From Escherichia coli (GTDB lineage Bacteria; Pseudomonadota; Gammaproteobacteria; Enterobacterales; Enterobacteriaceae), in NCBI RefSeq assembly GCF_048403405.1, contig NZ_CP183129.1: a stretch of 64,000 nt of DNA; one strand, 5' to 3'. A program made the position numbers and the translations under genes. Under the pieces are notes generated by a model. That model was not told the origin of the DNA and made no database searches. It saw only the letters and a program-made list of their open reading frames with translations. Shown one piece after another: positions 25,487-26,943 of the stretch (position 1 is its first letter; each line of letters opens with the position of its first letter).

Positions 25487-25545
25487 GCTATGATTAGCCG
25501 CTATTTTTTTGTCCTGAATGATGTTTGACACTACCGAGGTGTACT

Positions 25546-26943
25546 ATTTTTACCCGAGTCGCTAATTTTTGCCGCAAGGTGCTAAGCCGCGAGGAAAGCG
25601 AGGCTGAACAGGCAGTCGCCCGTCCACAGGTGACGGTGATCCCGCGTGAGCAGCATGCTATTTCCCGCAAAGATATCAGTGAAAATGCCCTGAAGGTAAT
25701 GTACAGGCTCAATAAAGCGGGATACGAAGCCTGGCTGGTTGGCGGCGGCGTGCGCGACCTGTTACTTGGCAAAAAGCCGAAAGATTTTGACGTAACCACT
25801 AACGCCACGCCTGAACAGGTACGTAAACTGTTCCGTAACTGCCGCCTGGTGGGTCGCCGTTTCCGTCTGGCTCATGTGATGTTTGGCCCGGAGATTATCG
25901 AAGTTGCGACCTTCCGTGGACATCACGAAGGTAACGTCAGCGACCGCACGACCTCCCAACGCGGGCAAAACGGTATGTTGCTGCGCGACAACATTTTCGG
26001 CTCCATCGAAGAAGACGCCCAGCGCCGCGATTTCACTATCAACAGCCTGTATTACAGCGTAGCGGATTTTACCGTCCGTGATTACGTTGGCGGCATGAAG
26101 GATCTGAAAGACGGCGTTATCCGTCTGATTGGTAACCCGGAAACGCGCTACCGTGAAGATCCGGTACGGATGCTGCGCGCGGTACGTTTTGCCGCCAAAT
26201 TGGGTATGCGTATCAGTCCTGAAACCGCAGAACCGATCCCTCGCCTCGCTACCCTGCTGAACGATATTCCACCGGCACGTCTGTTTGAAGAATCTTTGAA
26301 ACTGCTGCAAGCGGGCTACGGTTACGAAACCTATAAGCTGCTGTGTGAATATCACCTGTTCCAGCCGCTGTTCCCGACCATTACCCGCTACTTCACGGAA
26401 AATGGCGACAGCCCGATGGAGCGGATCATTGAACAGGTGTTGAAGAATACCGATACGCGTATCCATAACGATATGCGCGTGAACCCGGCGTTCCTGTTTG
26501 CCGCCATGTTCTGGTACCCACTGCTGGAGACGGCACAGAAGATCGCCCAGGAAAGCGGCCTGACCTATCACGACGCTTTCGCGCTGGCGATGAACGACGT
26601 GCTGGACGAAGCCTGCCGTTCTCTGGCGATCCCGAAACGTCTGACGACGTTAACCCGCGATATCTGGCAGTTGCAGTTGCGTATGTCCCGACGTCAGGGT
26701 AAACGCGCCTGGAAACTGCTGGAGCATCCTAAGTTCCGTGCTGCTTATGACCTGTTGGCCTTGCGAGCTGAAGTTGAACGTAACGCTGAACTGCAGCGTC
26801 TTGTGAAATGGTGGGGGGAGTTCCAGGTTTCCGCGCCACCAGATCAAAAAGGGATGCTCAACGAGCTGGATGAAGAGCCGTCACCGCGTCGCCGTTCTCG
26901 TCGTCCACGCAAACGCGCACCGCGTCGTGAGGGTACCGCATGA
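25546..26943 (+). CDS. pcnB: Poly(A) polymerase I
   Basis: ORF 25525..26943 has no in-frame ATG near the N-terminus; start placed at ATT (Ile) codon 25546 before [16 protein letters not shown], consistent with the known non-canonical AUU start of pcnB; 465 aa. Confidence 0.85.

Follow-up and report, generated by a model that had tools for sequence, protein, structure and literature searches.

Two genes of Escherichia coli, infC and pcnB, are described as the only ones confirmed to initiate translation at AUU in bioRxiv 10.1101/063800, PMC5499595, and PMC4447247. For pcnB, the gene of poly(A) polymerase I (PAP I), Binns & Masters 2002 (Mol Microbiol 44:1287) is cited as the source of the AUU start and of its restriction of PAP I synthesis in PMC2939334, PMC3561954, PMC4447247, PMC5499595, and bioRxiv 10.1101/063800. 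In reporters, AUU, AUC, AUA, and CUG initiate at 1–2% of the level of AUG (bioRxiv 10.1101/063800). The synthesis of PAP I is limited by AUU together with the ribosome binding site to about 30–50 molecules per cell, and excess PAP I kills cells via polyadenylation of tRNAs (PMC3561954); the same paper is self-inconsistent on the pcnB initiation codon, which is UUG in its introduction and AUU in its discussion. Among the papers searched, none linked pcnB to start-site mapping of E. coli by retapamulin, Onc112, or TIS methods, and we found no mention of pcnB in Salmonella riboproteogenomics supplements or in the TRAINSPOTTER text. The AUU start of pcnB was already described in 2002 and forms part of the reference annotation, and the finding presented below is correct but ordinary in this respect.

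The pcnB gene and its start region

The window analyzed here, a stretch of 64,000 nucleotides of E. coli DNA (contig NZ_CP183129.1 of assembly GCF_048403405.1), carries sfsA, dksA, gluQRS, pcnB, folK, and yadN in this order on the plus strand. Its PcnB matches NCBI cluster P0002 ('polynucleotide adenylyltransferase PcnB [Escherichia coli]') at 99% identity over 100% of the length, and this cluster has the Pfam domains PF01743 (PolyA_pol head), PF12627 (RNA-binding), and PF12626 (Arg-rich C-terminal). It differs from the K-12 protein by a few substitutions, none of them at the start site (e.g., ...RRRSRRPRK in the window and ...RRRTRRPRK in K-12). The near-identity, the three Pfam domains, and the dksA-gluQRS-pcnB-folK synteny identify the gene as the orthologue encoding PAP I. 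Positions 25300-25900 are 100% identical to those of strain 118UI (601 nt compared), and all but two of the 5426 complete E. coli genomes contain the region (5424).

Read from the sequence, the pcnB frame runs from a TGA stop through TGT, TTG, and ACA CTA CCG AGG TGT ACT to ATT, and continues with TTT ACC CGA GTC GCT AAT TTT TGC CGC AAG GTG CTA (Table 1). The TTG, seven codons upstream of ATT in the same frame, is where the mechanical ORF list begins pcnB (25525..26943, 472 aa). A search for an in-frame ATG from the upstream stop through ATT gave none; the canonical in-frame starts after ATT are GTG at codon 12 and then ATG at codon 52, the first in-frame ATG and presumably the start first proposed by Liu & Parkinson 1989. 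This agrees with the sequence-only reading of the stretch, according to which the frame opens at TTG, and ATT with no ATG precedes the conserved N-terminus. Comparison with annotated PcnB N-termini, the check proposed along with that reading, gave the equivalent of ATT 25546 as the annotated start in both 118UI and K-12. Thus, in the PGAP annotation of strain 118UI, pcnB occupies L001:1747-3144 (465 codons), with L001:1747 mapping to the ATT at window position 25546, and K-12 MG1655 b0143 (NP_414685.4; 157729..159126, minus strand) also has ATT as its first codon, in a context identical to window positions 25516-25584 (~70 nt). The further claim of a match with the known AUU start that limits PAP I is in accord with RefSeq for the two strains and with the papers citing Binns & Masters 2002.

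Table 1 Coordinates of the pcnB start region and adjoining features in the window.
Feature	Position	Strand	Remark
Sigma-70-like promoter match	25466..25494	+	-35 TTCTCA, 17-nt spacer, -10 TATGAT; overlaps gluQRS stop codon
In-frame stop TGA	25519..25521	+	Closes pcnB frame upstream
TTG, mechanical ORF start (472-aa reading)	25525..25527	+	Probably not the functional start
Shine-Dalgarno (SD) GAGGTG	25536..25541	+	4 nt before ATT; 6 nt from GAGG core
pcnB initiation codon ATT	25546..25548	+	RefSeq CDS start in 118UI and K-12; invariant among relatives
pcnB codons 2-11	25549..25578	+	Translated; synonymous sites unusually conserved
GTG codon 12	25579..25581	+	Start picked by some automatic gene callers; 454 aa, MLSREES...
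First in-frame ATG, codon 52	25699..25701	+	Anti-SD pairing -4.0 kcal/mol
pcnB CDS, poly(A) polymerase I	25546..26943	+	465 codons plus TGA stop
folK	26940..27419	+	ATG overlaps pcnB stop codon (ATGA, 26940-26943)

The potential for ribosome binding was scored by pairing the 3' tail of 16S rRNA with the 20-nt segment preceding each candidate start. GAGGUG, four nt upstream of ATT 25546, gave an anti-SD pairing energy of −9.8 kcal/mol; the mean of background windows was −3.4 kcal/mol, and values of −9 or better occurred in 3.4% of them. The score was −2.3 kcal/mol for TTG 25525, near the background mean, −0.1 kcal/mol for GTG 25579, which has no SD, and −4.0 kcal/mol for ATG 25699, which has a weak SD-like match. 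The sole good SD sits between TTG and ATT and would therefore serve ATT only.

Public protein databases hold PcnB with four different N-termini, that is, a 465-aa version starting at ATT (MFTRV...), a 472-aa version starting at TTG at −21 or, in Salmonella, at ATG (MTLPRC...), a 454-aa version starting at GTG codon 12, and a 447-aa version starting at a downstream ATG found in other genera (MVVEA...). The 472-aa entries come from Salmonella (with the ATG codon), Kluyvera, Cronobacter, and Kosakonia, and the codon 12 start is used in many metagenome and Logan gene calls. The mis-calling of the pcnB start by ORF finders and gene callers is real and widespread, and the start matters mainly for annotation hygiene, since its misplacement by callers has led to the 472-, 465-, 454-, and 447-aa versions in the databases.

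Several observations were made on the neighbouring genes. The stop/start overlap between pcnB and folK suggests that folK is translationally coupled to the weakly translated pcnB. The start of gluQRS differs between RefSeq records, being ATG 24560 in K-12 (308 aa) and ATG 24590 in the PGAP annotation of 118UI (298 aa, MTDTHYIG...). For dksA, the mechanical ORF begins at GTG 24050 (157 aa) and the annotated start is ATG 24068 (151 aa, MQEGQNRK...). Elsewhere in the window, Rfam matches above the gathering threshold were obtained for the tp2 sRNA (61182-61295, plus strand, 103 bits) and the HtrA 5' UTR RNA thermometer (4011-4056, minus strand, 77 bits).

Conservation in Enterobacteriaceae and beyond

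The start region was compared among pcnB loci from 80 Enterobacteriaceae species (87–99% protein identity; 82 sequences, 81 in some counts). GAGGTG, the 4-nt length of the spacer, and ATT were invariant in 82/82 sequences (the hexamer being counted in 81/81) across the 80 species. In E. coli itself, a 38-mer with ATT in its centre, for which a SNP within the central 18 nt precludes a megablast match, was matched in 5421 of the 5424 complete genomes carrying the region, 5419 of them at 100% identity, and the same 38-mer with ATG replacing ATT had no match among complete E. coli genomes. The SD-positioned ATT is under strong purifying selection.

At position −21, TTG was present in 28 of the 82 sequences and ATG in two (Salmonella), and the other 52 had no canonical start there. 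In the relatives, ATT is separated by 5 to 59 codons from the closest in-frame stop upstream, with only 5 codons in three species, and 43 of the 82 sequences contain no ATG, GTG, or TTG at all in frame between this stop and ATT. The N-terminal peptide from ATT onward is nevertheless identical in all 43, and the lack of a canonical start upstream of ATT in these sequences makes the 472-aa reading impossible in about half of the Enterobacteriaceae.

The alignment is lost on the 5' side of the SD, where indels do not respect the reading frame. The seven extra codons of the 472-aa protein are unconserved as protein, T at codon −1 being replaced by I, A, N, or P, with indels farther upstream. Moreover, the promoter-like motif GCTATGATTAGCCGC, found at the gluQRS stop codon upstream of pcnB in 81/81 sequences, is 29–170 nt distant from ATT, and these distances are distributed 42/29/10 over the residues modulo 3, showing no preference for multiples of three. 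The leader upstream of ATT thus behaves as non-coding DNA. In codons 2–11, variable sites amounted to 0/10, 0/10, and 5/10 at codon positions 1, 2, and 3, respectively, all five being synonymous; a coding signature starts directly after ATT, although, owing to the strong nucleotide conservation of codons 2–11, the third-position argument involves only these five sites. The restriction of variation to third positions in codons 2–11 argues against a start at GTG codon 12.

The synonymous sites in codons 2–11 were themselves unusually conserved. Their third-position entropy was 0.205, as compared with 1.04 in codons 22–150 (Mann-Whitney p = 1e-5; 80 species), and was the lowest among the 129 ten-codon windows in the first 150 codons. 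Across the 80 species, the nucleotide sequence of the SD, AUU, and codons 2–11 is almost absolutely conserved, beyond the need of the protein; it is conceivable, but in our estimate doubtful, that this marks a second layer of control on the weak AUU start. Such a layer could be the embedded sigma-S promoter pS1, a standby or initiation-enhancing sequence without which AUU would not function, or a site bound by an sRNA or a protein. The conservation in codons 2–11 may stem from constraints that apply generally to initiation regions with weak start codons, from the embedded pS1, or from a trans-acting factor.

In two Salmonella enterica sequences, from subsp. diarizonae (L021) and arizonae (L022), ATG takes the place of the E. 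coli TTG, 21 nt upstream of ATT. For S. enterica, a 472-aa PcnB is annotated at NCBI (P0013, MTLPRCAIFTRV...), and GAGGTG-N4-ATT is still intact. The 472-aa protein from the ATG at −21 is a candidate PcnB isoform in Salmonella, which constitutes a side question here.

More distant relatives were represented by 50%-identity cluster representatives with their encoding contigs. GAGGTG-N4-ATT was found in L082 (61% protein identity), which has a 1.08-Mb genome and in which ATT is the annotated start, in L083 (67%), and in L085 (62%), in which ATT is in frame 12 codons upstream of the called GTG. L084 (55%) has GAGGAT followed by ATT ATT. In L086, a Logan SRR20241965 contig with dksA-gluQ-pcnB-folK synteny (54%), the homologous codon is ATC. 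The homologous N-terminal peptide TTIRRVIELCKKVIG is encoded there upstream of the called ATG (L086:1420-1500), and the candidate starts after the in-frame stop are only CTG and ATC, the latter corresponding to the E. coli ATT. The N-terminal peptide was recognisable in frame in L083, L085, and L086 (54–67% identity) despite the diverged DNA. L087, L088, and L089, at 53% protein identity or less, have ordinary ATG or GTG starts just past in-frame stops. Another sequence, L091 (50% identity, MNKVSAN...), was set aside as uninformative; its called ATG is 12 nt from the start of a divergent gene, and the similarity is weak.

GAGGTG-N4-ATT thus persists at 61–67% protein identity and is replaced by canonical starts at 53% or less, and the non-canonical start of pcnB marks a clade that extends past Enterobacteriaceae without taking in all Proteobacteria. 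This agrees with PMC3561954, according to which Binns & Masters had phylogenetic evidence that other Proteobacteria also use AUU. The present analysis adds the invariance in 80 species, the persistence at 61–67% identity, and the canonical starts at 53% or less.

Alternative starts and elements of the leader

No canonical start precedes TTG 25525 in the open frame, 472-aa MTLPRC... proteins have been deposited for the four genera named above, and UUG is the codon given in the introduction of PMC3561954; nevertheless, we regard it as very improbable that TTG is the real or main start of a 472-aa protein. It has no SD upstream, its pairing energy being about that of the background mean, and the sole SD lies downstream of it. 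Moreover, a canonical start is missing at −21 in 52/82 sequences and anywhere from the stop to ATT in 43/82, with the N-terminus still identical; the seven extra codons are unconserved as protein; and RefSeq has moved the pcnB start to ATT. The suspicion voiced in the sequence-only reading, that the ORF-track start at 25525 is probably not the true one, is borne out by the lack of an SD, the absence of TTG in most relatives, and the position of the SD downstream of TTG. Low-level initiation at the SD-less UUG may occur on any transcript from the predicted promoter.

The codon 12 GTG is invariant in 82/82 sequences and is chosen in many metagenome and Logan calls, and the nucleotide conservation of the 33 nt from ATT to GTG greatly exceeds the demands of protein coding, as would be expected if this segment were a non-coding regulatory element preceding a 454-aa protein. 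This explanation is hardly credible, however, in view of the missing SD at GTG, the five variable sites between ATT and GTG, all of which are third-position and synonymous in the ATT frame, and the homologous peptide retained in frame in L083, L085, and L086 at 54–67% identity with diverged DNA; furthermore, published experiments described in PMC2939334 put the start at AUU. The remaining alternative adds to the AUU form a shorter PAP I, which would start at ATG codon 52 on an mRNA transcribed from pS1, the internal sigma-S promoter. An AUG start designated '+1(b)' and a possible shorter form of PAP I are discussed in PMC2939334, where pS1, located downstream of ATT, showed activity with sigma-S in vitro and, in special conditions, also in vivo, and where two anti-PAP I bands were seen on Western blots; codon 52 also has the weak SD-like match. 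The authors of that paper call the shorter form unproven and unlikely in normal growth, and a start at residue 52 would entail the loss of 51 N-terminal residues including the conserved residues 2–11, so that we consider such a second form unlikely, although clearly less so than a start at TTG or GTG.

The pcnB promoters reported in PMC2939334 are pB (major), p1, p2, pS1, and pS2, with pB upstream of ATT, and the sigma-70-like match in Table 1 is a candidate for pB, an identity that we infer. In E. coli YD786 (NZ_CP013112.1), an IS4-like ISVsa5 transposase element is present between gluQRS and pcnB (L092:1189-2397), with its junction at about window position 25478, splitting −35 from −10 of the promoter-like site; the insertion might alter the expression of PAP I in this clinical strain. 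TTG 25525 also belongs to a perfect TTGACA hexamer of the −35 consensus (25525-25530), which is conserved as TTGACACTACC in Escherichia, Citrobacter, Kosakonia, and Phytobacter, and a promoter scan found no −10 at suitable spacing for it. A 15-codon out-of-frame ORF (ATGATG..., 25518-25565), which overlaps the SD and ATT, is probably a chance ORF, as it lacks an SD and its ATGs occur only in Escherichia and a single Citrobacter.

A hairpin sequestering the SD was also considered and rejected. In both the MFE and centroid folds, GAGGUG pairs with UACCCG of codons 2–4, leaving AUU in the loop (−4.5 kcal/mol). The predicted pairing probability of the SD is no different from that in flank-shuffled controls (0.76 and 0.77 ± 0.16, respectively), however, the 120-nt region is less stable than its shuffles (z = +1.27), and the pairing partners are missing in L083 and L085. 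Every paired base is invariant, so that no covariation signal is available. An Rfam search for an RNA family in the pcnB leader gave a chance-level match only (E = 6.5).

Initiation at AUU and comparison with known systems

Collectively, it may be concluded with a probability of roughly 0.93 that pcnB is translated from the SD-positioned AUU at 25546-25548, which keeps PAP I scarce, and that TTG 25525 is a triplet within the 5' leader. Initiation at AUU and the limit on expression are taken from the literature; the codon, the SD and its spacing, the invariance, and the coding and non-coding behaviour on the two sides of ATT come from the present analysis. Presumably, the GAGGUG SD, four nt upstream, positions the ribosome on AUU 25546, and TTG 25525, the first canonical triplet after the in-frame stop, would remain within the 5' untranslated leader. 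IF3 discriminates against the pairing of AUU with tRNAfMet, a general property that is applied here to pcnB by inference. The imperfect pairing of AUU with the initiator tRNA, together with this discrimination, would make initiation inefficient, and the weak initiation would hold PAP I, which is toxic when overproduced, down to some tens of molecules in each cell; the output of PAP I would be low and may track the activity of IF3. As described in 2002, a start codon that is weak by design restricts this toxic RNA-tailing enzyme to a few dozen copies in each cell.

The closest known system is pcnB (b0143) of E. coli K-12; gene, start codon, and SD are the same, the 70-nt context is identical, and the start site shows no differences. 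The infC gene, which encodes IF3, resembles pcnB in being AUU-initiated in E. coli, and the weak codon limits expression in both. Unlike that of pcnB, the AUU of infC is the sensor of an autoregulatory loop, in which IF3 represses its own AUU-dependent initiation; to our knowledge, no feedback of PAP I on its own initiation is known. A further parallel is provided by ebpA of Enterococcus faecalis (PMC4447247), in which a rare ATT start, first mis-annotated at a canonical codon, also attenuates a level-sensitive protein, although ebpA encodes a pilus tip protein in another organism, and its mis-annotated start was downstream of the real one, whereas that of pcnB is upstream.
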